32,000 bases of DNA from an uncultured Acidobacteriaceae bacterium (GCA_963829535.1 CAWHIQ010000001.1:1001255-1033254), one strand, 5' to 3'; positions 6,434 through 25,225 are shown, counted from the first letter of the stretch. The notes: generated by a model from the letters alone, not told the origin. A program made the numbers and translations.

Positions 6434-6838
6434 CTAGCGGCAATGTTCCGGGTTGCTTTGACAAAGCAGGCCGGAGATTGCATCCAACATCACCGTTGGA
6501 TGGATTGGCTTAGCCAGGATTTCGAATTCATGACCTTCGCTTCTGGCTTTTTGCATGAGTCCCTCGGCCGAGGGCTGCCCGGAAAATAGTAGAACGTGAC
6601 ATTCGACGAAGCGACTCTTCAGTTCAACGGCGAAGTCTACTCCGTTCATCTCCGGGAGCATCACGTCGAGGATGGCAAGATGCGGGGACCATTGCGAGAT
6701 GGTCTGCAGCGCGGCTTCCGCCGAATAGGCGACGCGAATGTCGTAGCCGCTAGACGAAAGGATTTTCCCCAACGTATCCGCGACCACTTTCTCGTCTTCA
6801 ACGAGGAGAATCCTTCTTTCTCCCCCGTATGCAGGCAT
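6434..6838 (-). CDS. Single-domain response regulator (CheY-like receiver)
   Basis: Receiver signature: RILLVEDE ... LAILDVMLPEMNG ... ILAKP. The start was chosen at ATG 6838 (MPAYGGERRILLVEDE). The longer ORF to 7150 adds a non-receiver extension. Confidence 0.85.
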   Translation of the reverse strand: MPAYGGERRILLVEDEKVVADTLGKILSSSGYDIRVAYSAEAALQTISQWSPHLAILDVMLPEMNGVDFAVELKSRFVECHVLLFSGQPSAEGLMQKARSEGHEFEILAKPIHPTVMLDAISGLLCQSNPEHCR

Positions 6839-7306
6839 AAATGGCCTCTCTCGTGGGGAGATTGCGTGCCGCCCACTGCTGCTGTGAAGGATGCGGCGTC
6901 GCGCAAGGGGGGTTGGTTGTCCGACGCTCAACAAATGCAAGCATGTCGAGAGTAAAGAAGCTTGCAGCACGGCCGATTGGAATTCAGAACAGCTGAGGAT
7001 TGGACGGTCTGATCGCTCAGCACCGTTCCGGGGTTTGACAGCAGTTCCGATCGAAGTTGCCGGCCGGTCCGGAAAGCGTTTGAGCAGGTAGAAACACCAG
7101 GTGCGCGGGGCTCCGGTACTTACTTTTTGCCTTCCGGTAATGGAAGCCAATTACTGTTTTGCTGGTTTGCCTATCTCGAAGGTGCGAAGCTAAGCTATTC
7201 AATCTGCGTTATTTGTGTCGCTTCATGTCTATAGTAGACAGCATAGCGTTCGAGCATCAATCGCGGTGATCGAGCAAGTGGATCGAACCGCAATTGGGGG
7301 GAGACT

Positions 7307-7606
7307 ATGCCGGCACAGAAGCGTCAAAGCCGCGTCAAAACAAGCCACACAGATTCAATCTCCACCCACGTCAACGATGGTCAATCTCGTGCGGGTCTTC
7401 CGTCGAGTTTTGGCGAAAGCGTTCAACAGGAAATGCCATTTCCAGCTGCGTCGTGCCACCTCTTCGAGCATACCCAGCAGACGCAGGTTCCATTGCCTGA
7501 GCGCTTTCCACGGCTTACGCTTTTGGCGATCGCCGTCGCTGTACTTGCTTCGGCACTTGCGGCGGAGTTCGATTATTTGCGCGGTGCAGGTTATTACTGG
7601 CCTTGA
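7307..7606 (+). CDS. Hypothetical small membrane protein (weak call)
   Basis: 99-aa ORF preceded by GGGGGAG 5 nt upstream of the ATG. It has one hydrophobic helix (LTLLAIAVAVLASALAA). No homology is recognisable. Confidence 0.3.
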   Translation: MPAQKRQSRVKTSHTDSISTHVNDGQSRAGLPSSFGESVQQEMPFPAASCHLFEHTQQTQVPLPERFPRLTLLAIAVAVLASALAAEFDYLRGAGYYWP

Positions 7607-7909
7607 AATGGGGATTCATTTGATCGCAGATAGAACAGGCAATGTTGCTGCGACATTCAGTAGACTCGCGCCCGCTGCGGTGAGCCGCGTTGCCGCGGTG
7701 ACGCGAACAGAACGGGTCCCGGAAAGTTGTGAGTCAAGCTTTTTGCTGGACTGGCTCGCCGGCGGTGAGGCGTGTCAGAGAAATATCCAGGGGTTTTCCT
7801 TCAGATTTGAGGCTCTGAACTCCGTCGTCGCGAGTTGAGCGAAAAACACTATCGGGCCAAAATGAGCTTGCCGGCGCCGCCCCGGATGTGGGGTCACTTC
7901 AGCAACTTC

Positions 7910-7986
7910 TGGTCGGGGCGGAGGGATTCGAACCCCCGACCCTCTGCTCCCAAAGCAGATGCGCTACCAGACTGCGCTACGCCCCG
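7910..7986 (-). tRNA. tRNA-Pro (anticodon TGG)
   Basis: The reverse complement folds as a cloverleaf: acceptor CGGGGCG/CGCCCCG, anticodon loop TTTGGGA, T-loop GGTTCGAAT, encoded CCA. Confidence 0.9.
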
Positions 7987-8044
7987 ACGTGTTCTTTGAT
8001 TGTATCGCGGAACGGCTTGGCCTCCCATCGTTCAGATCTCAGGT

Positions 8045-8593
8045 TCACGGGTGAATGAGCCATTCAATGAGCCAGAGTAGAAGCACGATAGGAATGGCGA
8101 AAACAAGTCCAATCACACACGCGAGCGCGAGGAGAAACACCCAGTCCTTCCAGGTATGACGACGCGGCTCCCCGAGATGGCGCTGCAAAAGCCGGTAGTT
8201 GCGACTGTTCGTTTTCCACCCGATGTCGAAGGCGTCCCCCAGAACCGGAATTGAGCCGACAAGGACACTGATGCAGAGGTTTGCAGCCATGCGAACGATG
8301 GTGATATAGGGAACGCCGCGCACCCACGCGGCGATGGGAATGATCAACGAGAGCAGTCCCGCGATTACGTCTCCGATGCCCGGGACAAGGCCGATCATAC
8401 CGTCAACGCCGAACCGAATCCGCGTGAAGGGAATGCGGAAGGCTTCGTCGAGCAGATATTCCAACTTGCGCAGCGTCTCATCGCTGAAGAGCCCTGTGCC
8501 GCGGCTCCAGCGGCCGGGTGGGATGACAACGCCTTTGACGTCGGGGGAAGCCGACCGGTTGAAACGCGGCGATTTGGCTTTAGAATCCGGCAT
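8045..8593 (-). CDS. DUF4112-family membrane protein
   Basis: 182-aa ORF with the characteristic FRIPFTRIRFGVDGMIGLVPGIGDVIAGLLSL ... GDAFDIGWKTNSRN block. Confidence 0.8.
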   Translation of the reverse strand: MPDSKAKSPRFNRSASPDVKGVVIPPGRWSRGTGLFSDETLRKLEYLLDEAFRIPFTRIRFGVDGMIGLVPGIGDVIAGLLSLIIPIAAWVRGVPYITIVRMAANLCISVLVGSIPVLGDAFDIGWKTNSRNYRLLQRHLGEPRRHTWKDWVFLLALACVIGLVFAIPIVLLLWLIEWLIHP

Positions 8594-10385: not shown

Positions 10386-10448
10386 CTGATCGACCGTGAG
10401 GGATCCCGTTTCCGCGTGAGATCATTCAAAGCTACAATGTAGAAAAGC

Positions 10449-10525
10449 GGGCGAGTAGCTCAATCGGATAGAGCACCGGCCTTCTAAGCCGGGGGTTGTG
10501 GGTTCGATTCCCGCCTCGCCTACCA
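10449..10525 (+). tRNA. tRNA-Arg (anticodon TCT), copy 1; left 77-bp direct repeat of the island
   Basis: Acceptor GGGCGAG/CTCGCCT, D-arm GCTC-AATCGGATA-GAGC, anticodon arm CCGGC-CTTCTAA-GCCGG, T-loop GGTTCGATT, encoded CCA. It is identical at all 77 nt to 25149-25225. A TACAAT -10-like hexamer lies 11 nt upstream. Confidence 0.92.
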
Positions 10526-10652
10526 CGCTTAAAAATCAACCACTTACGCTATCTTCCGTCCTGCCAGAAATCGTACAGGCCTGGGGTATTTCCTGCAACA
10601 GTAAAGCCATTCCGTTTTTCAATAAATATCCACTATAAAGTAGGAGGAGATT

Positions 10653-10940
10653 ATGGGCCTGTCAAAAAGGATCATGGAACATCAAGAGGACCAGGTGAGG
10701 ACCGCGACCGACATTGCGGTGGAGTCACACGTATTGACCCGCTGCGAATTTCACAATGAGATTTACGATGCGCAGGCGGGCGACAACACCCCGGCTTACA
10801 TGCGCGGCAATCGCCTATTGTCATCGGGCGAGTTGCACGGTGTCTTTTCAGACCGCCGCGAAATGACAGACGCGATCAAGAGCGCCATTGAAGACTCGGC
10901 GATGGAATGCGGCTATTGCGCCAAGATGCGGGGCGATTAA
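10653..10940 (+). CDS. Hypothetical protein (95 aa)
   Basis: A strong RBS (AGGAGGAG) lies 4-5 nt upstream of the ATG. There is a CxxC near the C-terminus (ECGYCAK). Confidence 0.6.
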   Translation: MGLSKRIMEHQEDQVRTATDIAVESHVLTRCEFHNEIYDAQAGDNTPAYMRGNRLLSSGELHGVFSDRREMTDAIKSAIEDSAMECGYCAKMRGD

Positions 10941-11210
10941 GACGCCCTTCTATTTAGAGTGACAATCTCTTAATCACTCGGTCATAGACAGCGCATGATA
11001 TGCGGATGATGCGACACCTCCGCTTGTGCATAGTCTCTGCACCGTCAAGGATGAGGACACTCCCCCTGCTGCCGCTGATCGATTGTGCGATTTGACTGGA
11101 CTTGTAATAGGCGTTAGACGCCCCGCTAAAACGTGCCGTCGTTGGGTCTGCCCATCCTATTGTCTTGTCAGGGGTTGTGAAAGGTGCGATATGATCCTCC
11201 TGAAGCCTAA

Positions 11211-12041
11211 ATGCCAGCCGCCGTTACCAATGCGCCGAAGAAAGACTGTCCGCCATTCTTGCGCTGGGCGGGCAGCAAACGACGTCTGCTACCGGTCCTC
11301 CAAACCTTCTGGACACAAAGGCACAAAAGATACATAGAACCGTTCGCGGGCTCCGCATGTCTGTTTTTCGCGATTAAACCGGCGAAAGCAATCCTCGGGG
11401 ATCTGAATCCAGAACTAATCTCGACATACATTGAGGTCAAGTATCGTATTGATTCCGTACTGGAGGAGTTGAAGTCGCTGCCGCCAGCGAACAAACGGGA
11501 ATACAAGCGGTTGCGCTCACTTGACCCATCGACACTGTCGCGCACGGCAAGGGCCGCGCGATTTATCTACCTGAACCGCTTTTGCTTCAACGGGATTTAC
11601 CGCACCAACCTCCAGGGCCAATTCAACGTTCCTTACAGCGGGGATCGTTGTGGCGCTTTGCCACATGAGAAGATCTTCCAGACTTGCTCCAGCCGCTTGC
11701 GCGTGGCTCGGTTTGTGAATGGCGACTTTGAAGAGGTTCTGAAGCACGCAGAAAAAGGTGATTTGGTCTACATGGACCCCCCTTACGCAGTCCGGGCACG
11801 CCGCGTATTTCGCGAATACGACCCGAGCACCTTCACTCACGAGGACATCTCGCGATTGCGCTTTTGGATGGAACGATTAAACCGCGCTGGAATTAATTTT
11901 GTTGTGAGCTATGCCGAATCCGATGAAGCGGATGTTCTGAAACAAAGCTTTTCCTATGAGACGGTGGCCGTCCGCCGCAATGTTGCGGGTTTTGCTGCGC
12001 ATCGTGCATGGACCAACGAGTTGCTCATCTCGAATATTTGA
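11211..12041 (+). CDS. Dam-family (D12 class) N6-adenine DNA methyltransferase
   Basis: Dam signature blocks: FLRWAGSKRRLLPVL, YIEPFAGSACLFF (SAM binding), GDLNPELI and catalytic DPPY (VYMDPPYA). Confidence 0.85.
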   Translation: MPAAVTNAPKKDCPPFLRWAGSKRRLLPVLQTFWTQRHKRYIEPFAGSACLFFAIKPAKAILGDLNPELISTYIEVKYRIDSVLEELKSLPPANKREYKRLRSLDPSTLSRTARAARFIYLNRFCFNGIYRTNLQGQFNVPYSGDRCGALPHEKIFQTCSSRLRVARFVNGDFEEVLKHAEKGDLVYMDPPYAVRARRVFREYDPSTFTHEDISRLRFWMERLNRAGINFVVSYAESDEADVLKQSFSYETVAVRRNVAGFAAHRAWTNELLISNI

Positions 12042-12049
12042 AGGACTGA

Positions 12050-13093
12050 ATGCCGACCCTAAAGCCTACGCAGCCCGTGATTCCCCAAGTCATCCCTGCC
12101 GGACAGTTGCGTCAGCTCTCGCCCGAGGAAGTGAAGCCTAGCAGTAACAACCCGCGCCACCTGTTCGATCCCGATCAGCTGATGGATCTAAAGAAGAATA
12201 TCGGTGAACATGGCGTCCTTGTTCCGATTACGGTCTATCAGGCGAAAGGGCAGGCCAAGTTTTCCATTCTTGACGGCGAGCGGAGATACAGATGTGTTGT
12301 CGAGCTGGTGAAGGAAGGGCGCGTCGGTAAGGACGGAACGCCATTCAAACTCCCCGCCAATATCGTCGAGCCGCCGACCAAAATTGCTGGTCTGCTCTAC
12401 ATGTTCTCCATCCACAATTACCGTGAAGCGTGGGAGTTGATGCCCACCGCCCTCAGCTTGAGGATTGTGATGGAAGATCTTGAGACAGATGACAACAAGG
12501 CGCTGAGTAAGTTGACCGGATTAAGCGATGCCCAGATCGAGCGCTGCAAGAAGCTGCTCAAGTTTCCGGAGCGCTTTCAGGAGATGTCGCTCGATCCCAA
12601 CCCGCAGACGAGAATCCCGTCGAATTTCTGGATCGAAGCCCTGCCGGTAATTGACCTAGGTATCGCCACCAGTGAGCCGCTCAAGAAGCTGGGGCGCGAC
12701 CGATCGACAGACAAGCTTGTAGAGAAATACCGCACTAAGAAGATCAAGAGCGTGATCCATTTCCGCCGGATCATGGAAAGCTACGAAACTTCCGAAGACG
12801 ATCCACCGGTGCGTGCGAAAGTTCTGCGAAGAGTGGAGGAGTTCTTTCTCAATCCGAAGATAGAAACGCGGGAGGCATTTGACGAATTTGTCGTAGAGAA
12901 GCGGCGGGTCGAGAATGCGCTGGCCGCCTGTGACGGCTTCCTGACTCAACTGCGGCGCTTCAAGCTGAAGTACACGTCGAATGACGAAGAGCGGAAGAAT
13001 CTCCGCAAAGCACTCAAGGAAGTGCGGGCATACTGCGAAAGCCTCGAAAATGCCCTCGAAGGAAGCGATGATCCCGAGGCGAAGCAAGACTGA
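12050..13093 (+). CDS. ParB N-terminal (ParB/Srx fold) domain protein with a central HTH
   Basis: NPRHLFD ... GVLVPITV ... ILDGERRYRC (ParB box II-like GERR) followed by an HTH-like LSKLTGLSDAQIERCKKLL. It starts 8 nt after the methylase stop. Confidence 0.8.
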   Translation: MPTLKPTQPVIPQVIPAGQLRQLSPEEVKPSSNNPRHLFDPDQLMDLKKNIGEHGVLVPITVYQAKGQAKFSILDGERRYRCVVELVKEGRVGKDGTPFKLPANIVEPPTKIAGLLYMFSIHNYREAWELMPTALSLRIVMEDLETDDNKALSKLTGLSDAQIERCKKLLKFPERFQEMSLDPNPQTRIPSNFWIEALPVIDLGIATSEPLKKLGRDRSTDKLVEKYRTKKIKSVIHFRRIMESYETSEDDPPVRAKVLRRVEEFFLNPKIETREAFDEFVVEKRRVENALAACDGFLTQLRRFKLKYTSNDEERKNLRKALKEVRAYCESLENALEGSDDPEAKQD

Positions 13094-13095
13094 CC

Positions 13096-13911
13096 ATGAG
13101 GCGGATAATTTTCAGTATGAGGGCCGCGCTGCGTTTTTGGGGCTATAAACCCCAACCTCTCTCCTTACTTTCTGTTACCAGCTGGATCAAGCAATTCGAC
13201 AAGAAGGATCGGGGGCTCGCCATCAAGCTTCTCGATAATGTCATTTATCTGTCTGAATCCAGAACACGCGACATTCTAGTGGCACAAAACACGGAACTGA
13301 TGAAGCGTTTGAAGGAGGCCGGTCTTCCCGCAAAGAAGCTGATTTATGTGTCATTTCATGAAGCAGGAAGCAGTAGCCCGGTTATGCTGAATCTTCTGAG
13401 AGACTCAGCCAACCTCGAACGAAGGGGCTGCAATTTCATTGACGGGCGCGATTCGCTCGGCCTTGTCAAGATGATGAATAAAGTCGGCGAAGGGGCGTTG
13501 ATTTATGTCGATGACTTCATTGGCACCGGAAAGCAGTTCTGCGACGAGCGTGACTTCATCGCCAAGAACTTTGTTGGAACGTTTTCAGAGTTCGTAATCG
13601 CTCCGAGCATCTGTGAGGAAGCTTTTGAAAAACTGGACGCACGAGGTATTCAGGCATTCACTGGGCATAAGCACTTGAAGATCGAGCGGCCATTGCACGC
13701 GGAATCCACGATCTTCGACGAAGCACAGAGGAACCAGTTGGCCGCGGTGTGTAAACACATCGACAAATTTGGGCTTGGGTTCAAGGGCATTGCGACGATG
13801 GTGGTTTTGTACCGCAACGCACCCAACACGGTTCCAGTTATTTTCCGCGGCAACGTCAATCAACACCCCTATTTTGGGATTTTTCCGCGGGCAATGGATC
13901 TGCCTCTTTAA
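13096..13911 (+). CDS. Phosphoribosyltransferase (PRTase)-like protein
   Basis: A PRPP-binding-loop-like motif (ALIYVDDFIGTGKQF: hydrophobic run, two acidic residues, then TG) sits in a 271-aa ORF. It starts 2 nt after the ParB-like stop. The assignment rests on this single motif. Confidence 0.6.
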   Translation: MRRIIFSMRAALRFWGYKPQPLSLLSVTSWIKQFDKKDRGLAIKLLDNVIYLSESRTRDILVAQNTELMKRLKEAGLPAKKLIYVSFHEAGSSSPVMLNLLRDSANLERRGCNFIDGRDSLGLVKMMNKVGEGALIYVDDFIGTGKQFCDERDFIAKNFVGTFSEFVIAPSICEEAFEKLDARGIQAFTGHKHLKIERPLHAESTIFDEAQRNQLAAVCKHIDKFGLGFKGIATMVVLYRNAPNTVPVIFRGNVNQHPYFGIFPRAMDLPL

Positions 13912-13939
13912 GGACTCCCTTTGAGCGTGAATGATAGTC

Positions 13940-14584
13940 CTAGTCTGGACTCTCCTGTTCTGATTCCACTGCGACACGAATATCATCCAGCGTCTTCCCC
14001 TCGTACATCCAATAGTCAGAGCCACTAACAGTACCCAAGGTATAGCCGCCGAGCTTATGCAGGGCAGCGAGCGCAGATGCCGACAGACTCATAACCTGTC
14101 CCGCGTACTCCACTTTGTTTCCACTGACCACGGTTGCATGAACATCTTCATCCCTAGATAGCGTGAGCACGGTACCCGGCTTAATGCCGATAGCGTCAAG
14201 GTTGATTCGGGCGCGTCTCTTCGTTTCAGCTTTCTCGGCCTTTTCAAACGCCTGCTCTTCCTCTTTCGGGATGTCAACCTTCCCTGGGGTAACCTCATTG
14301 AACGAACCCATCCTGATGGCGAGCACAATCTTCTCCGGGGCGACTTGAAAAAACTCCCGGTTCGGATTAACGCGCTTGTCCGAAAACAACTGATGCAGAG
14401 TCTTTTCCTTAGCAGCCATGTTCTCAACTTTTGCCGCGAAGTGGCATTGAAACGCGACCGGGACGCCCGTAGCAGAGCTGAGTGCCTTAATGCGCTCTTC
14501 TACCGGCCCCGTGGTGCACCCAATCTTCACAAGTCCCGGCATAAATGGGTTAGTTAGGACGTAGAGAATCCCGGAATCTTCCAT
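13940..14584 (-). CDS. GIY-YIG / T5orf172-domain protein
   Basis: N-terminal ILYVLTNPFMPGLVKIGCTTGPVEERIKALSSATGVPVAF ... NREFFQV matches the T5orf172 pattern. The C-terminal domain carries YWMYEGKTLDDIR. Confidence 0.75.
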   Translation of the reverse strand: MEDSGILYVLTNPFMPGLVKIGCTTGPVEERIKALSSATGVPVAFQCHFAAKVENMAAKEKTLHQLFSDKRVNPNREFFQVAPEKIVLAIRMGSFNEVTPGKVDIPKEEEQAFEKAEKAETKRRARINLDAIGIKPGTVLTLSRDEDVHATVVSGNKVEYAGQVMSLSASALAALHKLGGYTLGTVSGSDYWMYEGKTLDDIRVAVESEQESPD

Positions 14585-14609
14585 TACACTCCCTCACCTG
14601 AACGACCCA

Positions 14610-14812
14610 TCACTTGACCGTCAGCCGATTGACCACGCGCTGGTACACAACCCTTGGTATGCGAATGCTTCGATAGATCCTCTTGTGCAAAGACGCGGGG
14701 CGGACCAACACAATGACGCCTCGCTCCAGCTCAAACATTCGCGTCACAGTTTGCCGCGAATAGCCTGTCAAGCGGCAACCTCAACCACGGTGTAAGCTGC
14801 CTTTTCTTCCAC
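14610..14812 (-). pseudogene. Excisionase/AlpA-like HTH gene interrupted by a frameshift
   Basis: On the minus strand, GTG 14812 gives MEEKAAYTVVEVAA then TGA. One frame over it continues LTGYSRQTVTRMFELERGVIVLVRPASLHKRIYRSIRIPRVVYQRVVNRLTVK*. Joined, this is a typical ~67-aa excisionase-type HTH. The ORFs are too short to appear in the track. Confidence 0.5.
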
Positions 14813-14850
14813 TGGCTATCAGCCCTTAACCTCTTGTCCCTCGGGTTCGA

Positions 14851-16437
14851 TCACTCAGCCGCCAAAGTGCCGTGCACGCTCGCCTTCCATTCGCTCATCA
14901 GAACCATTTCACAAGTGACGCTCGCACCGTCCTTGCCCACCAGTTCCAATTCGCCAGCGTGAACCACATCTTCGGCCTTGAAGCACTTTGACATCGCATC
15001 CAGCAACTTGCGCTTGTACGCGGTGTCCAGATTCCCTTCAAGTTGATCGCCCTTCATCTCCCAAACCAGAATGCGCTGCTTCTTGCCGGACTTCTGGTGC
15101 GCAAATATGAAGTCGGGGTAAACCCGATTCTTGCGCCAACCCTGAAGAGCATAGTTCCCGCCCTTGGCGACGTTGCGGTGCCACCAATCCAAGGCCGCTT
15201 GTTCATCCAAGTAACAGGCAAACTCCGCCTCATCCGTGTTGAAGTCTTCCTCATAGACGGGCGCAAAGATGCTCTTCTCTACGGGACCTCCCGATGATGG
15301 CCGCACCAATTTACGGGCCTTCTCAGGCCGTTCCGTCTCCATTGCCATTGGCAATTCCCATACGGCCCGGTCCGCACGCAACCTGAATTGAATCCGCTCT
15401 GCCGATACGTCACCGAAAAATTGCGCCTCTGCTAGCCGGTCACGCTCTTTCACCAGCCACTTGCGAAGCTCCTCAAGAATGTAGCCAGATGCACCGCCAA
15501 GGTCCGCATCGGTCAACCCGCGTCCGCGCAGCGCGGCAAGCAATTCCCCAATGAGGGCACGCGCCACCCAAGGATTCGGCAGAATATCCACCATCAGCCG
15601 GGTTGCGTACACGGTATCAAAACTCGTAGCTTCAACCACGGTTTGCCGTCCCGTCTCCTCAAGCCAATCCTTGCCGGTCCCGATGCCAACCCGCACAACG
15701 TAGCTCGCCTCCGCTGTGGGAGCCTTGGAGAGTTGTTCCACCAGCGGGTTGAGGTCAAGCGCCCCCCAATTCAGCCGGTACAAAACATCCTGCTCATAGT
15801 CGAGTGGGCGCGATGCCTTTCCTTGCACCCAATTCACCATTGGGAGGAAAATCCGCAGTGTGCGGAATTTATCTCGCCTTCGCACCTTGCGGGTAGACTG
15901 CTTGGCACTGGAACTCCCGTCACCCTCTTTCACCTTCCCTGCAAGGTCCGCCATGCCGTCTTTTTCCAATCCCGACTTGATGCTGTCCACCACCTCTTTT
16001 GTCGTCGCATGGTGGCAAAAAATGTAGCACTCATTCAGGACGGCCAATTCCTCTGGAACGTAAGTCGCCTCCGGCTGCCTCAGAATCCGCCCTATAAGCT
16101 GTGTCAGCGCATTGAGGTTGCGATTCGTTGCCAGCGTGCAAAGCACATAAGCAAACGGGCAATCCCAACCTTCCTGCAATGCCTGCTTGGTGATGATGAC
16201 GCGCACGGGGCAAGTGGAACTCAGCAGGTCACTATTGCCTGGATTGCAGTCCACCTTCCCCGCATACATCGGCAACAGTGCCTTCAGCGCGTGCAGATTG
16301 TCCCCGTGGATGATGAGGTTGCCATTGAGAGACGGCTCCCCCACAGACCTCCCCGCATCCGGCACCAGTGGGCGGTACGGCACGGTCAAATGATGGTTGT
16401 AGACAAATTCTTTCCCTTTGAACTGAAGCTCTGGCAT
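14851..16437 (-). pseudogene. Type III R-M remnant: Mod N-terminus fused in frame to Res C-terminus
   Basis: Residues 1-64 (LQFKGKEFVYNHH ... GNLIIHGDNLHALKALLPMYAGKVDC) are the conserved Mod N-terminus, ending just before the expected DPPY block. The rest starts at helicase motif VI (ITKQALQEGWDCPFAYVL ... QLIGRILRQP). It ends with a PD-(D/E)xK-like nuclease (YPDFIF ... LVWEMKG). No Walker A or DEAH motif is present. Confidence 0.7.
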
Positions 16438-16860
16438 ACGGCGAACGATCCTCTGTTTTTCTTTTGAAAGTCTACATCTCTGAGGCTCCGCGCCCCAGTT
16501 GGGTCTCGCATCCCTCAGAAAAGTTTGAGTTATGAGTAAATTCGGCGCGTAAGTGAGCCGTTCCGCTCCGACTTTGCGTTCCGCTCGTCCGTCCTGGTGG
16601 GTGACAATGCCCCCGGGGATTTTCGTTGCCGGACGTGTTCACGACCACATCGGTAGGCGAATGTGACTTTGGTGTGGGTCCCCGTGATCGCGCTCACAGT
16701 ACAGGTCAAAAGCCGTTCGGTATTCTTCGTACGTTTTCCGCTGTAATCGAACGCTCATGGCTAGTCGCTATTTCCAGCGACGCGCCTACGTGCTTTGTAG
16801 CGCGGCTACGGGGCCTTGTGCGCAATATACCAACCATCATCAACAGGAAAAGAGGCAAGG

Positions 16861-17148
16861 ATGGAAAACGTATCAGAGGCAATCAAAGGCGTGACCTCCG
16901 CGATAAAGGACGGTCTTGTCACGCAATCGGTGACCCTAGATTTGGGCGAGAACACCGGAGAATGGCCGGGACTGTGTGTGGCGCTCCACGGCACGCCGGA
17001 TGACCACTCCGTAAAGGTCCACGTGTTTCACGATGGATTTGACCGTCTCTTGATCGCAATCACTGCGCACACGGCAGCACTGAACAACATTGCCAAGGCT
17101 ATCAACGGAGTCAACAAGACTGTGGGCGCTCTGAAGAAGGCAAAATGA
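16861..17148 (+). CDS. Hypothetical protein (95 aa)
   Basis: ATG 16861 is preceded by AAAGAGGCAAGG. The stop overlaps the next start (ATGA at 17145). Confidence 0.5.
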   Translation: MENVSEAIKGVTSAIKDGLVTQSVTLDLGENTGEWPGLCVALHGTPDDHSVKVHVFHDGFDRLLIAITAHTAALNNIAKAINGVNKTVGALKKAK

Positions 17149-17447
17149 AAAAGCTGAGATATATCCGTTTCGTTGGTTGCAAGCCAGCGCCGGAAAAAAT
17201 ATGCGAGAAGTGCGGTAAGAACTCCGGAATCATTCACACGCTTGCCACGGACACCCGAGCTGACTCAACCCTCCCCGTGTTGCACATGATGAGCGAGCGT
17301 CTTGAGGTTTGCTTGGAGTGTGCCGAGTCTCTTGTTTACCGGACGGACAAGGGGATGCCCACTTGGGCTGAAACCCAAAGTCTTGACGGCGGACTCGGTA
17401 TGGACGGGTGGACAAGTCGCTGGCACGCGGAGGACTGGAATCGATGA
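17145..17447 (+). CDS. Hypothetical zinc-ribbon protein (100 aa)
   Basis: Two Cys pairs (CEKCG ... CLEC). It is translationally coupled on both sides (ATGA overlaps at 17145 and 17444). Confidence 0.5.
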   Translation: MKKLRYIRFVGCKPAPEKICEKCGKNSGIIHTLATDTRADSTLPVLHMMSERLEVCLECAESLVYRTDKGMPTWAETQSLDGGLGMDGWTSRWHAEDWNR

Positions 17448-18421
17448 CTCTCACGATTGAAGACCTGAAACTGCAAAAACGTTGGGTCTTGTGGAAGCTG
17501 GAGAAGCGTGACGGCAAAGATACCAAAGTCCCATACCAATCAAACGGTGCCCATGCCGCATCTGACAACCCCGCAACGTGGGGCACGTATGCGGAGCTAT
17601 CTGCCCACGTGCATCGCTTCAGCGGCGTTGGGTGCGTGCTTGGTGATGTTGATGGCTTGCCCTTGTGCGGGGTTGATATTGACAGCTGCTGTGATGCACA
17701 GACAGGCAAATTCACAAAAGAGTCAAAGGCAATTGTCATTAACCTTGACAGCTACAGTGAGTACAGCCCGAGCGGAACCGGTGCTCACATACTCATGCTT
17801 GGCACGTTGCGTTCCCGCAAAGGCATCAAGCTGCCATTCATGGGCGCCAAGGCCGTGGAACTGTATGACAGCGGACGCTATTTGACATTCACCGGGCGTC
17901 ATCTTCCAAAGACGCCCAATGCTGTCCTTGAGCGTGACAACGCTGTCAATGAGCTGTATGACCGGGTGTTGGCTAGCAAAGCAAAAAGCCCGGGGCTGAC
18001 GGTCTGCATCTCAGTGTCTGAGGAAGAGCGGCTCTCGCTGTTGATGGCCGGTGACATGAGCTTGTATCACGATGACCACAGCACGGCGGACTTTGCATTG
18101 TGCTGCCTTTTAGCGAAGAAGCACGATTGCAATGCATTCAAGATGGATGATGACTTCAGGAAGTCCGGCTTGTGGAGGGATAAGTGGGAGCGTGATGACT
18201 ACCGGGAAGGCACCATTGCGCGCGCTATCAAAGCTGTGGCGCGTGAAATTCCCATTGTGTTTGAAGATGACCCGGACGGACTGGCAGAGGACCGTGAGTT
18301 GGAGTATTTGGTCAGCTCGTGGTTTCCCAAGGGCGAAGTGTCACTCATTGGAGCACCAAGCGGAGCGGGGAAGACTAGCTTTGGCTTGAACTTTCTGGAG
18401 GCACTCCGCAATGGCACGTGA
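17444..18421 (+). CDS. Prim-pol (bifunctional primase/polymerase) domain protein ending in the Walker A of a RepA/DnaB-like ATPase; 5' part of a split gene
   Basis: Prim-pol motifs CGVDIDS and EYSPSGTGAHIL, then ELYDSGRYLTFTG. The C-terminal Walker A is GAPSGAGKTS, and the ORF stops 17 codons later. Confidence 0.75.
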   Translation: MTLTIEDLKLQKRWVLWKLEKRDGKDTKVPYQSNGAHAASDNPATWGTYAELSAHVHRFSGVGCVLGDVDGLPLCGVDIDSCCDAQTGKFTKESKAIVINLDSYSEYSPSGTGAHILMLGTLRSRKGIKLPFMGAKAVELYDSGRYLTFTGRHLPKTPNAVLERDNAVNELYDRVLASKAKSPGLTVCISVSEEERLSLLMAGDMSLYHDDHSTADFALCCLLAKKHDCNAFKMDDDFRKSGLWRDKWERDDYREGTIARAIKAVAREIPIVFEDDPDGLAEDRELEYLVSSWFPKGEVSLIGAPSGAGKTSFGLNFLEALRNGT

Positions 18422-19232
18422 AGTGTGGGGGCACCCTGCCAAGGCGCGTGACTACCGCGTTTTGAGTCACGATAGAAGCAAGCGGAGCATTGTGAGCACC
18501 GTGAAGTCATTGGGGCTGCCCGTGAGTGAAGTCTTGCCCCGTGTCATCAGGCTGACCACAAAACAACAATTGGCAAATCCGGCTGAGGTGTTTGCCGCGT
18601 GTCTCGACAACAACCCGGGCGTTGAAGTGTGGTTCATCGAAGGACTCGACATGTGGATTCCCGAGATGAACAAAATGGATGTTGTTGCGCCAATCCTGGA
18701 CGGGCTGCAACGGCTTGCCACTTTGCACGATGTTGCCGTGATCGCCACTGTGGGGTCACCGAAACAGAAAGGCAAAGACAAGTACACAGGCCGTGATGCG
18801 CTGTTTGGCAGTGCAGCCCTTGCACGCAAATCCGAAACCATTGTCACGGTTGGATGGACCAATGACGATGACCCAAACAGCGTGCGCAAGGTTGTGGTGA
18901 TGCCACGGACGGGGCAGTCTGAGACGCTGTTCTTCACTTGGCTCAATGGCCGGTTTGACCAGACAACGGAGCCACAGGCGGTATTCAACAGCGGCACAGA
19001 CACAAACCGCTCCTTGATGGAAGTTGCACTTGCTAGGTTCCCGGAGGACATGCCAGTCACGTATGTGCCTAGCTTTGGCTCTGAGCGGGCATTCTACCGT
19101 TGGAGAGAATGGGCGGCCAACAACGGGCTTATCCGCAAGATAAAGAACCGCTGGTATTGGCAGTGCGTGGCAGTGTCGGAGTGGAGACAGACCCATACAC
19201 TGACAGGCGGTGCAAGGCTTTTGGCGAGCTAA
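18411..19232 (+). CDS. RepA/DnaB-like ATPase, Walker B-containing 3' part of the split primase-helicase
   Basis: It is in the +1 frame relative to 17444..18421 and overlaps it by 11 nt. It contains a Walker B-like VEVWFIEGLDMW and downstream VAVIATVGSPKQ, but has no Walker A of its own. Confidence 0.7.
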   Translation: MAREVWGHPAKARDYRVLSHDRSKRSIVSTVKSLGLPVSEVLPRVIRLTTKQQLANPAEVFAACLDNNPGVEVWFIEGLDMWIPEMNKMDVVAPILDGLQRLATLHDVAVIATVGSPKQKGKDKYTGRDALFGSAALARKSETIVTVGWTNDDDPNSVRKVVVMPRTGQSETLFFTWLNGRFDQTTEPQAVFNSGTDTNRSLMEVALARFPEDMPVTYVPSFGSERAFYRWREWAANNGLIRKIKNRWYWQCVAVSEWRQTHTLTGGARLLAS

Positions 19233-20361: not shown

Positions 20362-20627
20362 GTTCCATTGAAGCCTGAACTTGAGTCCAGAGGCTAATCG
20401 CCCGTTTCAGCTTTCACCAACTCAGGTCGCCGTTCGCCCGCACTTTTCTGGTCGCATTCAATGTCCAACAGCCTGCCGTGCCATGTCATTTTTTGGCGCA
20501 TCCGCCATTTCTGGCGGACAGCGCGAATTCGCAGAACCTGCTGTGCCATGCCGTTCCGCGCATACATCGTGGTGTTCGCTGCGTCTTAATAAATGTCAAA
20601 ACTGCGAGATAGATTTCGACGATGTGG

Positions 20628-20636
20628 TGCTAATAT
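20628..20636 (+). promoter_or_regulatory. Candidate extended -10 promoter (TGcTAATAT) for the RiPP operon
   Basis: TG-n-TAATAT lies 38 nt upstream of the precursor-A start and ~26 nt upstream of its RBS. Confidence 0.3.
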
Positions 20637-20673
20637 GGGTGTCCTTAGTGGAACTCATCCAAGGAGGACACTC

Positions 20674-20865
20674 GTGCCGGAAACGAAAGAATTCAAGCTC
20701 CCAAAGGATTTTCAAATAACGGTCGTTAACGATGAGGCGAAGGGTGCGGTCATGAGGAACGTTGCGACTGTACAGGCCGGTGGCATAAGCGGAACGAATT
20801 GTGCGTTAAGCGGCGGGAAGTTTAGTCCGAACGATTTTCATTGCAAAGACAAGGATGAAGAATAA
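20674..20865 (+). CDS. Graspetide-type RiPP precursor peptide A (63 aa)
   Basis: GTG start lies 6 nt after AGGAGG (20662-20667). The peptide is MPETKEFKLPKDFQITVVNDEAKGAVMRNVATVQAGGISGTNCALSGGKFSPNDFHCKDKDEE. It is a paralogue of 21025..21213 and lies upstream of an ATP-grasp maturase. Confidence 0.7.
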   Translation: MPETKEFKLPKDFQITVVNDEAKGAVMRNVATVQAGGISGTNCALSGGKFSPNDFHCKDKDEE

Positions 20866-21024
20866 GCTCCATCCTGAACGATCACCTGTCATATCATAGT
20901 CTGAGTTTTAGCAGAATGGTGCAGCATTGGTCAGCTGCTGAGCCAACGGGGGATAATTGCTCCAACTCCACGAGTCAGTTACAAAAAGCCCGGCTCTCAT
21001 TCGAATTGAACTTAGGAGGAGATG

Positions 21025-21213
21025 ATGGTTGAATCGAAGGTATTCAAGCTCCCAAAGGAATTTCAAATAACGCTCGTTAACAAGAAGGCGACGGGTGCGG
21101 TCGTGAGGAACATTGCGATCGAGAAAGCTGCTACAGTTTCCGGAACCGCGGGTTGTGTAATGACGGGCCCTCCCGAAAATCCCAACGATTTCCAGTGCAG
21201 CGATACGGATTAG
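21025..21213 (+). CDS. Graspetide-type RiPP precursor peptide B (62 aa)
   Basis: AGGAGG (21014-21019) is 5 nt from ATG 21025; the ATG at 21022 is too close to it. The peptide is MVESKVFKLPKEFQITLVNKKATGAVVRNIAIEKAATVSGTAGCVMTGPPENPNDFQCSDTD. Confidence 0.75.
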   Translation: MVESKVFKLPKEFQITLVNKKATGAVVRNIAIEKAATVSGTAGCVMTGPPENPNDFQCSDTD

Positions 21214-21214
21214 C

Positions 21215-21409
21215 GTGCCTGAATTCCCGGAAGATTACCCTATTCCTTTCGTTTTGCGAGTTGCAGCAGAATGGTGCCGCATCGACGAGGTTCCCCGCTC
21301 TGATGATGGTGTCATCCGCTACATGAAGCGCGCTTCGCTCACGGGATCTACCGCATTCACGGGAGAGCATGAGGACGTGCAATTCACAGACATTGGTCTG
21401 TCGGGATGA
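21215..21409 (+). CDS. Small ORF (64 aa) translationally coupled to the ATP-grasp gene; function unknown
   Basis: GTG lies 1 nt after the precursor-B stop, and its TGA overlaps the ATP-grasp ATG (ATGA at 21406-21409). There is no clear RBS. An internal ATG at 21323 would give a 28-aa peptide, MKRASLTGSTAFTGEHEDVQFTDIGLSG. Confidence 0.4.
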   Translation: MPEFPEDYPIPFVLRVAAEWCRIDEVPRSDDGVIRYMKRASLTGSTAFTGEHEDVQFTDIGLSG

Positions 21410-22365
21410 TCTTAGTTCTTTCCAACCAAGAAGACGCCCACGTATCCACGGTGACAAAGGAACTAGACAGGCGAGGTGCGATTTATACGGTATTAGATCC
21501 CGCGCTTTTCCCGTCTGATGTCGAATGCGTTGTCGAGAATTGTGGCGAGAGAATTGAAGCGAGGTTGGAAGCACCTTCAATTTCAATCAGCTTGAGTGAT
21601 GTTCGCTCGGTCTGGGTACGTCGTCCGGGAAAGTTTGTCCTCCCGGACCGGTTGTCTCAGGGCGAAGCGAAATGGCTACGTACAGAGTGCGAGCACTTAT
21701 TCGACGGGATTTGGGAGAACCTCCGTGCGTTCTGGATAAGCGAACCTCGTAGAATCAACTGCGCCAGTCGAAAGTTGCTTCAACTTCAGACCGCGTCAGC
21801 AATTGGCCTTAAGATACCGCGTTTCTTGATCACGAACTCTCCTCAACGGGCGGGAGAATTCATCGACGCTTGCCCGAAGGGCACGATCGTAAAGGGGCTA
21901 GCGTCCCCGGCATTAATGACCGAAGATCAATGTGCTTATCTTTACACCCATCTCGTGTCTCAGAGCGATCTGAGATACCTTGATTCTGTCCGGTATGGTC
22001 CGAATTTCTTTCAGGAGTTCTTGCTGAAGCGACTAGACATTCGCGTAACCGTGGTCGGAACGAAGGTCTTTTCAATCGGCATCGATGCGACGAATGAAGA
22101 GTCAGGTAAGGTCGATTTCCGACGGGCGGAGGTTTTCGATTTACCACATTTTCCTCTGGAGCTTCCCCAACGAATGAACGATGCCTGCGTTCAGTTAGTG
22201 CAAGAACTCGGCTTGCAGTTTGGCGCAATTGATCTGATTCAGACGGAAACGGACGAATACTACTTTCTAGAGATAAATCCGAACGGGCAATGGCTTTGGT
22301 TGGAATGGATGACAGAAATTCCGATCTCCAAGGCCATCTGTGATCTGCTCATCTCTGCAGGATGA
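21406..22365 (+). CDS. ATP-grasp ribosomal peptide maturase (microviridin MdnB/MdnC-type macrocyclase)
   Basis: The N-terminal MILVLSNQEDAHVSTVTKELDRRGAIYTVLDPALFPSDV and the C-terminal FGAIDLIQTETDEYYFLEINPNGQWLWLE are the hallmark ends of RiPP ATP-grasp ligases. The central FFQEFLLKRLDIRVTVVGTKVF block also fits. Confidence 0.85.
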   Translation: MILVLSNQEDAHVSTVTKELDRRGAIYTVLDPALFPSDVECVVENCGERIEARLEAPSISISLSDVRSVWVRRPGKFVLPDRLSQGEAKWLRTECEHLFDGIWENLRAFWISEPRRINCASRKLLQLQTASAIGLKIPRFLITNSPQRAGEFIDACPKGTIVKGLASPALMTEDQCAYLYTHLVSQSDLRYLDSVRYGPNFFQEFLLKRLDIRVTVVGTKVFSIGIDATNEESGKVDFRRAEVFDLPHFPLELPQRMNDACVQLVQELGLQFGAIDLIQTETDEYYFLEINPNGQWLWLEWMTEIPISKAICDLLISAG

Positions 22366-23313: not shown

Positions 23314-24267
23314 TTAAAGTCCCTTCAGAAGATCGGACATCTTGGTGTCCAATCCCCGTGCAATTACTTGCAACGTAATCACCCCGATGTCCCTCTTCCC
23401 TTGTTCGATATCGGAAATATGCGTGCGACCCATGTCGAGGTTGACAGCCATGTCCGTCTGAGTCCAGCCCTTCTCCTTGCGATGACTCCTTATTCGCTGA
23501 CCGAGTTCTAGGAGGGTCTTGTTTTTTCGGGTGAACGTCTCGGGCTCCCAAATGCAGTCCTCCACCCCCGTGTAGTTCAATGCAAAGTGCACGTCTTGGC
23601 CGGACTCTTTAATCACGAATCGGCTAACAACCGCTTGTGGGGTGGAATGTGCGCCAGTTTCCGACAGGCGCCCCCACTGCTCATACAGCTCGGACTGCCC
23701 TTTGAATGCTCTATTTTTTTTATCCTTTTCAAAGGCCTCCCTAAATTCAGTCGCTTCTTTAACACCATCGTCTTTGCTCAGCCAGACCCTTTGGAGGTTG
23801 GGGTCACCGAGCATGTAGTGTGCGAAGACGGAGGTTTCAATCGCATCCCTTAGGATCGAGCGCGCTTCTTCCATACATCGACTGAATACAAGTTCCATGC
23901 TCACCCGAATCTTTGCGTGAGCGTTGAGAAAGAGTACTAGCGGGACCATTCGGGTGGTATCCGTGGCCCTTGCCATGTCCTGAAATTCTGTGAACAGAAT
24001 GAGGTCAAGCAAGCCGAAAAATCGCCAGAGATTTGGGGAGCCTTGGACCCCGGCAAAAAAGTTGTTTCTCTTGGCTCGTAAATAGGGCCGGTAGTGTTCG
24101 GGAACTGTGACGCGTTCAAACGGCAATAACAGATCGTCTTCGTTGGGTGTTGGCTCGTTCATGCTTGTCCGTCCGTTTCGATGCGCGCGCGAGAATTTGG
24201 CAGGCGAGCCGGTGAAGTATTGCCAACTCGCCCACTCGTTATTTTGAGAGTAGACTAACGCGCTCAT
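23314..24267 (-). CDS. Protein with a C-terminal XRE-family HTH and an uncharacterised ~240-aa N-terminal domain
   Basis: C-terminal LGQRIRSHRKEKGWTQTDMAVNLDMGRTHISDIEQGKRDIGVITLQVIARGL is a canonical XRE HTH. ATG 24267 overlaps the integrase 3' end by 29 nt; ATG 24162 is an alternative start. Confidence 0.75.
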   Translation of the reverse strand: MSALVYSQNNEWASWQYFTGSPAKFSRAHRNGRTSMNEPTPNEDDLLLPFERVTVPEHYRPYLRAKRNNFFAGVQGSPNLWRFFGLLDLILFTEFQDMARATDTTRMVPLVLFLNAHAKIRVSMELVFSRCMEEARSILRDAIETSVFAHYMLGDPNLQRVWLSKDDGVKEATEFREAFEKDKKNRAFKGQSELYEQWGRLSETGAHSTPQAVVSRFVIKESGQDVHFALNYTGVEDCIWEPETFTRKNKTLLELGQRIRSHRKEKGWTQTDMAVNLDMGRTHISDIEQGKRDIGVITLQVIARGLDTKMSDLLKGL

Positions 24268-25090
24268 GCACGGCCTGAAGGTCCGCTGTCATAAGGTTTG
24301 CGTATCGTCTAGTCATCTCCAACGTTGAATGACCGAGCACCTTCTGCAAATGGAACACAGACCCGCCGCGCCTGAGATAGTTAACCGCGAATGTGTGTCG
24401 GAATGCGTGCAATGTGCGTCCAGGAGGGGTAAATCCTAGCTGCTTGCAGAGCAGCTTCACATCCCGGAGGGCGTTACGGCGACTCCAATGCCCCTCTGTT
24501 CGGCTGGCAAATAGAAGCGAGTCCGGCTGGCGGTCACGCTCCTTGCAGTAACGGAACAGGACTCTCCGCAGTTGGAAACTGAAAGGGACAACTCTCTGCT
24601 TTCTTCCCTTGCCGTCAAGCGTAACGAGCAAGTCCTCCATGTTGATGTCGGAGACGCGCAAAGACAATGCTTCCGAGATGCGGCCCCCAGTGTCCAAAAG
24701 GAACAAGATGAGAAGATGCAATCGCCGTTGGTAGTTCCCTTTGGGCTTCCACTCGATGAGCCGCTTGACCTGCAAATCGGTGAATGTGGGCAGCACCAGA
24801 TGGGGCTCTCTCAGTTGGGGGATTCGCGGGTGATTGCAACCCGCGCCGCATTTTTGTTCCGAGCCGCTGCTCCAATGCAGGTAAGCATTCACGCACCGGA
24901 GCACCGTGTTGACGCCTGTCTCTTTGAGGCCCTTCTCCCGCATCCGCACAATGAGGACCCTCAGGTCCGCTTGCGTGGGAACTTCCGATGGCAGCCATTT
25001 CAGGCACCGCCTGTACCATTCAATTGTTGCCGGGGTCACATTTGTGAGGCATTGCCGTTCGCGAATAAATTGCTCGAAACGCGGTCCCAT
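24239..25090 (-). CDS. Tyrosine recombinase/integrase (XerC/D-like, 283 aa)
   Basis: An N-terminal SAM-like core-binding region is present. The catalytic blocks are GGRISEALSLRV (Arg), HAFRHTFAVNYL (H-x-x-R) and LGHSTLEMTRRYANL (Tyr). Its start is 58 nt from the right tRNA-Arg copy. Confidence 0.9.
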   Translation of the reverse strand: MGPRFEQFIRERQCLTNVTPATIEWYRRCLKWLPSEVPTQADLRVLIVRMREKGLKETGVNTVLRCVNAYLHWSSGSEQKCGAGCNHPRIPQLREPHLVLPTFTDLQVKRLIEWKPKGNYQRRLHLLILFLLDTGGRISEALSLRVSDINMEDLLVTLDGKGRKQRVVPFSFQLRRVLFRYCKERDRQPDSLLFASRTEGHWSRRNALRDVKLLCKQLGFTPPGRTLHAFRHTFAVNYLRRGGSVFHLQKVLGHSTLEMTRRYANLMTADLQAVHERVSLLSK

Positions 25091-25148: not shown

Positions 25149-25225
25149 GGGCGAGTAGCTCAATCGGATAGAGCACCGGCCTTCTAAGCCGGGGGTTGTG
25201 GGTTCGATTCCCGCCTCGCCTACCA
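25149..25225 (+). tRNA. tRNA-Arg (anticodon TCT), copy 2; right 77-bp direct repeat of the island
   Basis: Identical at all 77 nt to 10449-10525, and followed by a strong intrinsic terminator. Confidence 0.9.

Follow-up and report, generated by a model that had tools for sequence, protein, structure and literature searches.

Retron III-A systems combine a reverse transcriptase (RT), a noncoding RNA (ncRNA)/multicopy single-stranded DNA (msDNA) element, and a phosphoribosyltransferase (PRTase) effector fused to a winged helix-turn-helix (HTH) domain. The effector of Retron-Eco11 has a phosphoribosyl pyrophosphate (PRPP) loop ending in GSGNQ and a clade-specific G-x14-PNNxP motif, and its activation leads to PRPP depletion (PMC12746101). 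ShosT couples PRTase and pyrophosphatase activities (PMC11961720), and the anti-phage system DS-32 consists of a NADAR glycohydrolase and a PRTase that is distantly related to the one described here (bioRxiv 2025.01.08.631726). On mobile DNA, phage and plasmid polyvalent proteins and ParB-methylase fusions (for example, Bce_0392) bring ParB/Srx together with an N6-adenine methylase (PMC5512222); Iyer et al. 2017 (PMC5512222) assign the ParB domains of those fusions to nuclease or nickase types. Here, we analyzed three adjacent genes from an uncultured Acidobacteriaceae bacterium that encode a Dam-type methylase, a ParB-type protein, and a PRTase. They lie in a 32,000-nt stretch (GCA_963829535.1, CAWHIQ010000001.1:1001255-1033254), which we refer to as the window. 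The trio is a conserved, mobile unit of three genes with intact motifs that are inherited together. We regard it as about an even bet that this unit is a self-contained, horizontally mobile three-gene conflict cassette of the defense type.

All three genes are on the plus strand and together span approximately 2.7 kb. The first (11211-12041) encodes a 276-aa Dam/DpnM-type N6-methyladenine (m6A) methylase, the second (12050-13093) a 347-aa ParB/Noc/KorB-type protein, and the third (13096-13911) a 271-aa protein with a PRTase-CE domain (Pfam PF24390), which is the predicted effector. The junction between the methylase and ParB genes reads TGA-AGGACTGA-ATG, with an 8-nt spacer that contains AGGA, and the junction between the ParB and PRTase genes reads TGA-CC-ATG, with a spacer of 2 nt. 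Public gene callers begin the PRTase at Met8 (264 aa); we favor the start at 13096 because the first 8 residues are kept in homologues. An initial annotation, generated from the sequence of the window, had described three closely packed genes forming one operon, namely a Dam-family m6A methylase with an intact DPPY motif, a ParB/Srx-fold protein with an NPR...GERR box and an HTH, and a 271-aa protein with a PRPP-loop-like VDDFIGTG motif. The spacing and shared strand bear out the operon, and the family assignments given below agree with the annotation for each of the three proteins.

The cassette probably has its own promoter. A -10-like hexamer, TATGAT (11190-11195, plus strand), lies 15 nt upstream of the methylase ATG, and when we compared the upstream regions of many unrelated loci, TA(C/T)G(G/T)TATGAT-like elements recurred approximately 15 to 30 nt upstream of the methylase start. 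The conserved sequence extends 5' of the hexamer, and a promoter at this distance from the ATG would leave a very short leader. A generic sigma-70 promoter and terminator scan did not call TATGAT at 11190-11195 and was otherwise uninformative. The -10-like element is the only sequence that recurs upstream of the cassettes; we found no palindrome or parS-like ParB loading site there.

The trio stays together in approximately 90 other places in public genomes and metagenomes. For the genome scan, we derived narrow peptide patterns from an alignment of PRTase homologues and applied them to 185,579 species-representative genomes, one per species. This yielded 33 loci, mostly from Acidobacteriota, with some from Verrucomicrobiota, one from Ignavibacteria, and one from Chloroflexi. 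We then used tblastn to compare all proteins of the genomic island that carries the trio in the window with these loci. Methylase, ParB, and PRTase genes were present in the same order and with the same spacing in 26 of the 29 loci with enough upstream DNA, and no other island gene traveled with the trio in the 29 assessable loci. All-against-all clustering of the open reading frames (ORFs) gave the same result: the recurrent clusters were the PRTase (31 of 33 loci), ParB (27), and the methylase (24), and the next cluster was found in only 3 loci, so the cassette consists of exactly three genes. Because the same trio in the same order is present in dozens of unrelated contigs, a chance arrangement is excluded.

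Considering all searches together, we counted 76 loci with a full-length ParB match and matches to both the methylase and the PRTase. Full-length ParB and PRTase genes with a demonstrably absent methylase occurred at none of the loci; one locus, which ends right after the PRTase gene, could not be judged. A metagenome scan based on an alignment of family members of approximately 280 aa added distant trios, in which identity to the window proteins was 21 to 28% for the PRTase, 32 to 42% for ParB, and 42 to 52% for the methylase. Gene order is not fixed at this distance. Three loci have the order ParB-PRTase-methylase (L060, L065, and L066), with the methylase on the opposite strand in L066, and one further locus has a D12 methylase two genes upstream of a ParB-PRTase pair. 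Searches anchored on ParB or on the methylase recovered the trio in every place examined. Conservation of the three genes as a cassette, which had been put forward as something to check, is therefore seen with any of the three genes as anchor, in Acidobacteriota, Verrucomicrobiota, Ignavibacteria, and prophage contigs. Occurrence is patchy across several phyla, and one carrier is Paracidobacterium acidisoli 4G-K13 (L002).

By sequence comparison, the PRTase belongs to the same family as the effectors of retron III-A and of STAND-type immune proteins. The protein matches PF24390 along the entire profile (3e-32, 112.9 bits against a cutoff of 27; residues 27-265, profile positions 1-253 of 253), and five PADLOC PRTase_III-A models match it with E values from 1.5e-17 to 1.9e-7, the best across residues 22-266. 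At E ≤ 0.1, PADLOC gave nothing besides these retron models, and no ShosT model was among the matches. The PRPP loop is ALIYVDDFIGTGKQ; it contains VDDFIGTG at residues 138-145 and ends in GTGKQ, and the type I loop pattern of a hydrophobic stretch followed by DD-x-x-(S/T)G is satisfied by ALIYVDDFIGTG. A second motif near the C-terminus, G228-x14-P243-N-T-V-P247 followed by RG..NQ..GIFPR, is invariant in the family. When the distant group is included, only D140, G143, and G145 stay invariant; in the DDFxGxG loop they are the second Asp and both Gly, and because they are retained, catalysis is probably retained as well.

Structure comparisons point in the same direction. All top Foldseek matches of the PRTase model in the PDB are type I PRTases (OPRT, UPRT, and HGXPRT, with E values of approximately 1e-4), and the best match in BFVD is named 'PRTase-CE domain-containing protein.' A profile search of the PDB sequences with the PRTase family returned nothing significant. 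The NCBIfam model DS32_1, which describes an anti-phage PRTase, matches residues 26-151 only, with 37.5 bits (1.5e-9) against a cutoff of 250.

In a profile search of 1.84 billion representative proteins, the family proved small: 59 representatives reached E ≤ 1e-30, and 525 reached E ≤ 1e-3. Its distant relatives are found in fusions to STAND NTPases (nSTAND1/AAA_16), to diadenylate-cyclase-like (DAC) domains, and to a histidine phosphatase (His_Phos_1), with domain matches from 1e-39 to 1e-54. We identified PRTase-CE with DAC in L084, L112, and L123, STAND with PRTase-CE in L114, L116, and L118, and PRTase-CE with His_Phos_1 in protein P0378. These fusion genes may represent further uncharacterized conflict systems. 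In L116, the fusion gene is preceded by genes for a second STAND protein and a BrxL-like Lon ATPase.

The most ordinary identity for such a protein, a nucleotide-salvage PRTase, had been named beforehand as one that would refute the annotation's reading. It is ruled out by the matches to PF24390 and to the retron III-A effector models, by the G-x14-PNxxP motif and the other features of Retron-Eco11 type, and by the fusions of its distant relatives.

The first protein exceeds the cutoffs of both methylase family models, with 145.2 bits against 22 for Pfam PF02086 (MethyltransfD12, 3.8e-42) and 190.4 bits against 114.85 for NCBIfam TIGR00571, and it matches PADLOC MTase_II at 3.1e-67. Its translation contains EPFAGSACLF, in which FAGSA corresponds to the FxGxG-like S-adenosylmethionine-binding motif, and VYMDPPYAV with the catalytic DPPY. 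The nearest solved structures are M.DpnIIA (4.4e-42) and E. coli Dam (3e-27). We predict that the enzyme is active. GATC is a plausible target, as M.DpnIIA, E. coli Dam, and T4 Dam, which the protein resembles, are GATC enzymes.

ParB is the most conserved of the three proteins: its best 119 matches other than itself are 71 to 86% identical, and nearly all are 347 aa long. Pfam ParB_N (PF02195) matches residues 19-84 (2.9e-12, 46.9 bits against a cutoff of 26.3), and the score for NCBIfam parB_part (TIGR00180) is 49.3 bits, below its cutoff of 58.45. Residues 19-181 align with the Noc structure 7nfu (phmmer, 1e-7). This alignment covers the N-terminal domain, where NNPR (33-36) aligns with Noc QPR and GERRYRC, with GERR at 76-79, aligns with Noc GERRWRA, and it continues through residues 130-181 in the HTH region. 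For the remaining approximately 160 residues, which match no family, the prediction is a helical region that includes conserved basic helices and ends in a coiled coil. Foldseek matched the N-terminal-plus-DNA-binding structures of ParB, Noc, and KorB; the best matches were CTP-bound clamps of these proteins at E values of approximately 2e-3, obtained with a mediocre model.

This resemblance to Noc, Spo0J, and KorB in the N-terminal domain and HTH raises the alternative that the cassette has a housekeeping role in partition or epigenetic regulation, in which ParB would act as a segregation or transcription factor and the methylase and PRTase would be passengers. The presence of the trio beside dnaA in one lineage could be taken the same way. 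However, ParA is neither among the recurrent ORF clusters of the 33 loci nor in the Pfam-annotated neighborhoods of related loci, and the annotation's judgment that partition is unlikely can stand on that ground. In addition, the trio moves as a unit across unrelated contexts and phyla, only 33 of 185,579 species-representative genomes gave a locus in the scan with narrow peptide patterns, and the PRTase is of the effector type rather than the salvage type. We consider a housekeeping role extremely improbable.

ParB also differs from the characterized clamps in ways that go beyond the absence of ParA. It shares with ParB/Spo0J, Noc, and KorB the ParB/Srx domain, the PR and GERR boxes, and the HTH, and its best structural matches are CTP- or CDP-bound. 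Unlike these proteins, it has no KorA or membrane-targeting partner, its Box III appears divergent, its helical and coiled-coil C-terminal half is unique to it, and a methylase and a PRTase always accompany it.

No named system accounts for the combination of methylase, ParB, and PRTase. The annotation had been unable to match the three genes to one, and we found none in PADLOC v2, in NCBIfam release 20, or in a literature search of incomplete coverage. Among the closest described systems is retron III-A, which has the same effector family, with a PRPP loop ending in G(S/T)GxQ and the G-x14-PNxxP motif, and which likewise couples the effector to a DNA-binding function. The trio differs in several respects. 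Its conserved neighbors do not include an RT, an Rfam search of 10400-17000 gave only a tRNA, and a retron ncRNA between the genes is excluded because the gaps of 8 and 2 nt are too small. The winged helix fused to the retron effector also has no counterpart, as the PRTase ends at residue 271, right after the PRTase-CE domain; the partners of the effector are instead a methylase and a ParB-type protein. In the STAND-NTPase (AVAST/NLR-like) and DAC fusions, the same PRTase-CE domain is present and a sensor that is a nucleoside triphosphate (NTP) switch is likewise coupled to an effector, but the sensor of the trio is a separate ParB-type protein, and a methylase is an obligatory third part.

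Comparison with systems that mark self DNA by methylation is also informative. As in DpnII-like type II restriction-modification (R-M) systems, the trio has a Dam/DpnM-type m6A enzyme that comes first in the operon and was never seen lost with the other genes intact. However, neither ParB nor the PRTase matches a restriction endonuclease or another nuclease in Pfam or PADLOC, and the predicted effector is an enzyme of nucleotide metabolism. BREX and DISARM also mark self by methylation, and their core genes are absent from the trio. Polyvalent proteins and ParB-methylase fusions likewise bring a ParB/Srx domain together with an N6-adenine methylase, but the ParB of the trio is a separate, HTH-bearing, Noc-like protein, and the PRTase is always present. 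We rate the trio as a methylation-linked conflict system with an effector from a known family and an architecture that has not been described.

Three parallels had been drawn by the initial annotation, to DpdB, to ShosTA, and to the PRTase effectors of some retrons. Only the last survived, through the PRTase_III-A match at 1.5e-17. ParB had no match to any PADLOC v2 model at E ≤ 0.1, and a gene like the tRNA-guanine transglycosylase-like DpdA of Dpd systems is not conserved with the trio. ShosTA and DS-32 share the PRTase fold of their effectors with the trio and are experimentally validated as anti-phage systems. However, no ShosT model matched the PRTase, no DprA-like (ShosA) gene is conserved with the trio, and for DS-32, there is no conserved NADAR gene and the DS32_1 score is far below the cutoff.

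These comparisons bear on the alternative that the cassette hypermodifies DNA. An NTP-driven ParB would position the PRTase, much as DpdB assists DpdA, to phosphoribosylate or exchange DNA bases, the methylase would provide a precursor or a competing mark, and the product would protect the DNA of the element or mark DNA epigenetically. Help from ParB-like NTPases in modifying DNA is established for the Dpd and Dnd systems, which counts for this alternative, and the pairing of PRTase and NADAR in DS-32, together with the weak DS32_1 match, is compatible with a ribosylated base as the product. Nevertheless, no transglycosylase, NADAR, or other enzyme for modification or erasure is conserved with the trio in the 33 loci, and ParB matches no PADLOC model. 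The fusion partners of PRTase-CE (STAND, DAC, and His_Phos) indicate signaling or nucleotide chemistry and an effector role, and the characterized relatives act on PRPP and nucleotide pools. We view hypermodification as very unlikely.

The way in which the cassette decays provides information on how its parts depend on each other. Wherever loss of the methylase could be traced, the N-terminus of ParB or the whole of ParB was lost as well. One and the same PRTase protein, P0012, is part of an intact trio in L035, L039, and L040 and is also present in L036 to L038, where a deletion removed the methylase gene and ParB codons 1-44. An insertion sequence (IS) element is located at the breakpoint in L036 to L038 and likewise in L010 and L030. 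In L010, only the C-terminal half of ParB remains, beside a Mu-like transposase gene, and in L030, ParB is gone entirely and a truncated PRTase gene adjoins an IS66 element. Two half-genes remain in L032, where the ParB N-terminus is gone, and P0331 is chimeric, joining the N-terminal half of the methylase to the last 77 residues of the PRTase. In this small sample, the pattern indirectly suggests that the methylase is needed for safety as long as ParB and the PRTase are intact.

This kind of dependence would also be expected of a guard or addiction module, in which ParB would keep the PRTase inactive on methylated resident DNA and the effector would fire when that state is lost. Loss of the cassette, degradation of host DNA, or interference of a phage with methylation would then trigger post-segregational killing or abortive infection. 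Beyond the methylase never being seen lost alone, without the ParB N-terminus or ParB going too, this alternative fits with the presence of the cassette on an integrative island and in prophages, and with the msDNA-based complex of Retron-Eco11, which holds its PRTase effector until triggered (PMC12746101). However, the same observations fit a defense cassette that discriminates self from foreign DNA equally well, and nothing separates the two logics. Many chromosomal copies, moreover, have no mobile-element genes nearby and so no obvious beneficiary of addiction. We consider a guard or addiction role unlikely, though less so than the other alternatives.

Co-variation among the trios offers a lead on which parts interact. 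We compared 60 non-identical complete trios (loci L002 to L132), of which 52 belong to a close group that provides the figures given here, and divided ParB into residues 1-185 and 186-347. Divergence of the methylase correlated with that of the C-terminal half of ParB (Spearman 0.65) rather than with the adjacent N-terminal half (0.36), and divergence of the PRTase correlated with the N-terminal half (0.72) more than with the adjacent C-terminal half (0.55). The methylase and PRTase were nearly uncorrelated with each other (0.21). Simple linkage would have produced the reverse of this crossed pattern. The methylase lineage was swapped at least once, and loci with the other lineage (45% identity) have a typical N-terminal half and a more divergent C-terminal half of ParB. 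Taken as a lead from statistics that ignore kinship, these data suggest that the methylase co-adapts with the part of ParB that reads DNA, and the effector with the part that binds nucleotide.

We propose the following mechanism for a defense cassette. The Dam/DpnM-type methylase would label resident DNA by m6A methylation, with GATC or a related site as the probable target. ParB would serve as a DNA-reading nucleotide switch that binds through its HTH and extended helical region and forms an NTP-dependent (probably CTP-dependent) clamp, and methylation of its sites would govern how it loads or how long it stays bound. On marked self DNA, the PRTase-CE protein would be held off via ParB, and it would be licensed when unmarked, foreign DNA appears. 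The active enzyme would then consume PRPP or corrupt nucleotide metabolism, as reported for Retron-Eco11 and ShosT, and either phage replication or the infected cell would be stopped. ParB would thus supply in trans the DNA-binding role of the winged helix fused to the retron III-A effector, plus the role of the STAND NTPase in the fused relatives.

For a logic of R-M type, with the methylase protecting self, the support is only indirect and comes from the methylase never being seen lost alone. The specific form of this proposal, a class of epigenetically gated immunity not described before, in which a ParB CTP clamp senses m6A and licenses a stand-alone PRTase-CE effector to cause PRPP or nucleotide starvation or phosphoribosylation of nucleic acids, is one that we advance tentatively, as a possibility with the odds against it. 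If true, it would be the first use of ParB-CTP clamp mechanics in self/non-self discrimination and an R-M-like system without a nuclease.

Several points weigh against a defense cassette that works in this manner. Its function and mechanism are predictions from comparisons of sequences, loci, and structure models, and the way in which a cassette without a nuclease would stop foreign DNA or an infection is one that we purely infer. PADLOC v2 has no model for ParB and called no system. Within ParB, the Pfam match does not extend beyond profile position 66 of 95, Box III (ENLQR) appears divergent, and in Box I, which is present along with the GERR box, the catalytic Gln is replaced by Asn. The AlphaFold2 models are based on shallow alignments and are mediocre, with a pLDDT (predicted local distance difference test) of 63 for ParB, whose N-terminal domain is below 50, and of 65 for the PRTase, and for this reason residues of the nucleotide pocket were not judged from them. 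For the co-variation, the bootstrap intervals of both differences exclude zero, but the statistics ignore kinship. GATC and other palindromic 4-mers are neither depleted nor enriched in the window, the island, or the trio, so the counts give no clue to the target of the methylase. Finally, only a minority of 94 flanking ORFs at other loci are related to defense or mobile elements, and many copies lie amid housekeeping genes (hemE/hemH, dnaA, GroEL) without a recognizable defense island.

If the cassette is immune in function, it would unite three things that have so far been studied apart: self-marking by methylation, ParB nucleotide-switch clamps, and PRTase effectors that attack nucleotide metabolism. 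It would provide a compact model for epigenetic gating of a non-nuclease effector and for PRTase-CE chemistry, which is open for retron III-A, and it would extend the diversity of defense into soil Acidobacteriota, which are poorly covered in current defense catalogues. Even if it is an addiction module, the obligate coupling of a methylase to ParB and PRTase would make a clean, testable system. In addition to being compact, the cassette is deeply conserved and open to direct tests.

In the window, the trio is located at the left edge of a 14.7-kb island between two identical, full-length, 77-nt tRNA-Arg(TCT) genes (10449-10525 and 25149-25225). A tyrosine integrase gene (24239-25090, minus strand) adjoins the right-hand copy, next to an island gene for an HTH/DUF5677 protein (23314-24267, minus strand). 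Between the left-hand tRNA gene and the trio is a small ORF (10653-10940, plus strand) that resembles ea8.5 of phage lambda (Pfam, 8.6e-08); it is also present on an identical Logan contig (L034) and is not found beside the trio elsewhere. Directly downstream of the trio and convergent with it, a T5orf172/MUG113 protein is encoded (13940-14584, minus strand), which matches the PADLOC candidate single-gene defense PDC-S57 over its full length (2.6e-70). It is followed by a type III Mod/Res remnant (14851-16437, minus strand), a 528-aa in-frame fusion ORF in which the first approximately 64 aa derive from Mod (PADLOC MTase_III, 3.9e-26) and the rest from the C-terminal half of Res (REase_III, 1.8e-77, profile positions 415-876 of 883). 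From its sequence, this ORF is a type III R-M system inactivated by deletion.

We considered the T5orf172 gene, the type III remnant, and the ea8.5-like gene as parts of the system and rejected them, since none co-occurs with the trio elsewhere. The description of the neighborhood as defense-flavored thus holds for the window itself, with PDC-S57 and the type III remnant, but does not extend to other loci, where these neighbors are not conserved with the trio. There, the 94 flanking ORFs include resolvases, integrases, IS transposases, AbiEi, a type II R-M system, HEC-01A, PDC-S70, and an ORC-CDC6-like protein. In prophage L043, the trio is positioned between tail-fibre/lysozyme (lysis) genes and the integrase gene, the usual slot for accessory cargo, and four IMG/VR contigs carry it. 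Overall, judging from gene content, these contexts are those of mobile accessory cargo; they are compatible with defense and do not prove it.

Mobile contexts could also point to an establishment or anti-restriction kit, in which the orphan methylase would pre-empt host restriction and the ParB-like protein and PRTase would manipulate host DNA or nucleotide pools early after entry, a role that has been proposed for the corresponding domains of polyvalent proteins. PRTase, ParB, and N6A-methylase domains do occur in polyvalent proteins of phages and conjugative elements (PMC5512222), in the window a single transcription unit separates the trio from the attachment (att) site of the island, and the four IMG/VR contigs fit this alternative as well. 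However, the trio subfamily had no match in 50,697 phage records, and 72,556 plasmids gave one remote match, a 527-aa protein of different architecture in Bacillus mycoides; together, these results weaken the case for phage or plasmid establishment genes. Most copies are chromosomal, and in L043 the trio occupies an accessory slot on the lysogeny side, by the integrase, rather than a place with early or injected functions. As judged against Noc, ParB, and KorB, the ParB of the trio belongs to the classical HTH-bearing ParB/Noc type. In our estimate, an establishment kit has little chance of being correct, and a mobile conflict cassette remains our preferred reading of these contexts.

Some placements of the trio and some other island genes deserve mention in their own right. 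In the metagenomic lineage with dnaA (L133 to L137), the trio is directly beside that gene at approximately 6733-8160 in locus coordinates, which is probably coincidental. The same probably applies to a Bryobacteraceae lineage (L125 to L128) in which a gene for an HhH-GPD DNA glycosylase lies immediately upstream of the methylase gene. Farther along the island in the window, a primase-polymerase with an NrS-1 polymerase HBD domain and the start of an AAA_25 helicase domain is split across two overlapping frames (17408-18421 and 18411-19232, both on the plus strand), which could mean a frameshift, a pseudogene, or programmed recoding in the replication gene of the island. Next on the plus strand, two paralogous small ORFs (20593-20865 and 21022-21213) immediately precede an MvdD-type ATP-grasp ligase gene (21406-22365). 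The small ORFs share a leader-like part, FKLPK(D/E)FQIT, have ends rich in Ser, Thr, Asp, and Glu, and contain an 88-nt DNA repeat with 88% identity. Together with the ligase gene, they look like a graspetide (omega-ester peptide) cluster for a ribosomally synthesized and post-translationally modified peptide carried on the island.

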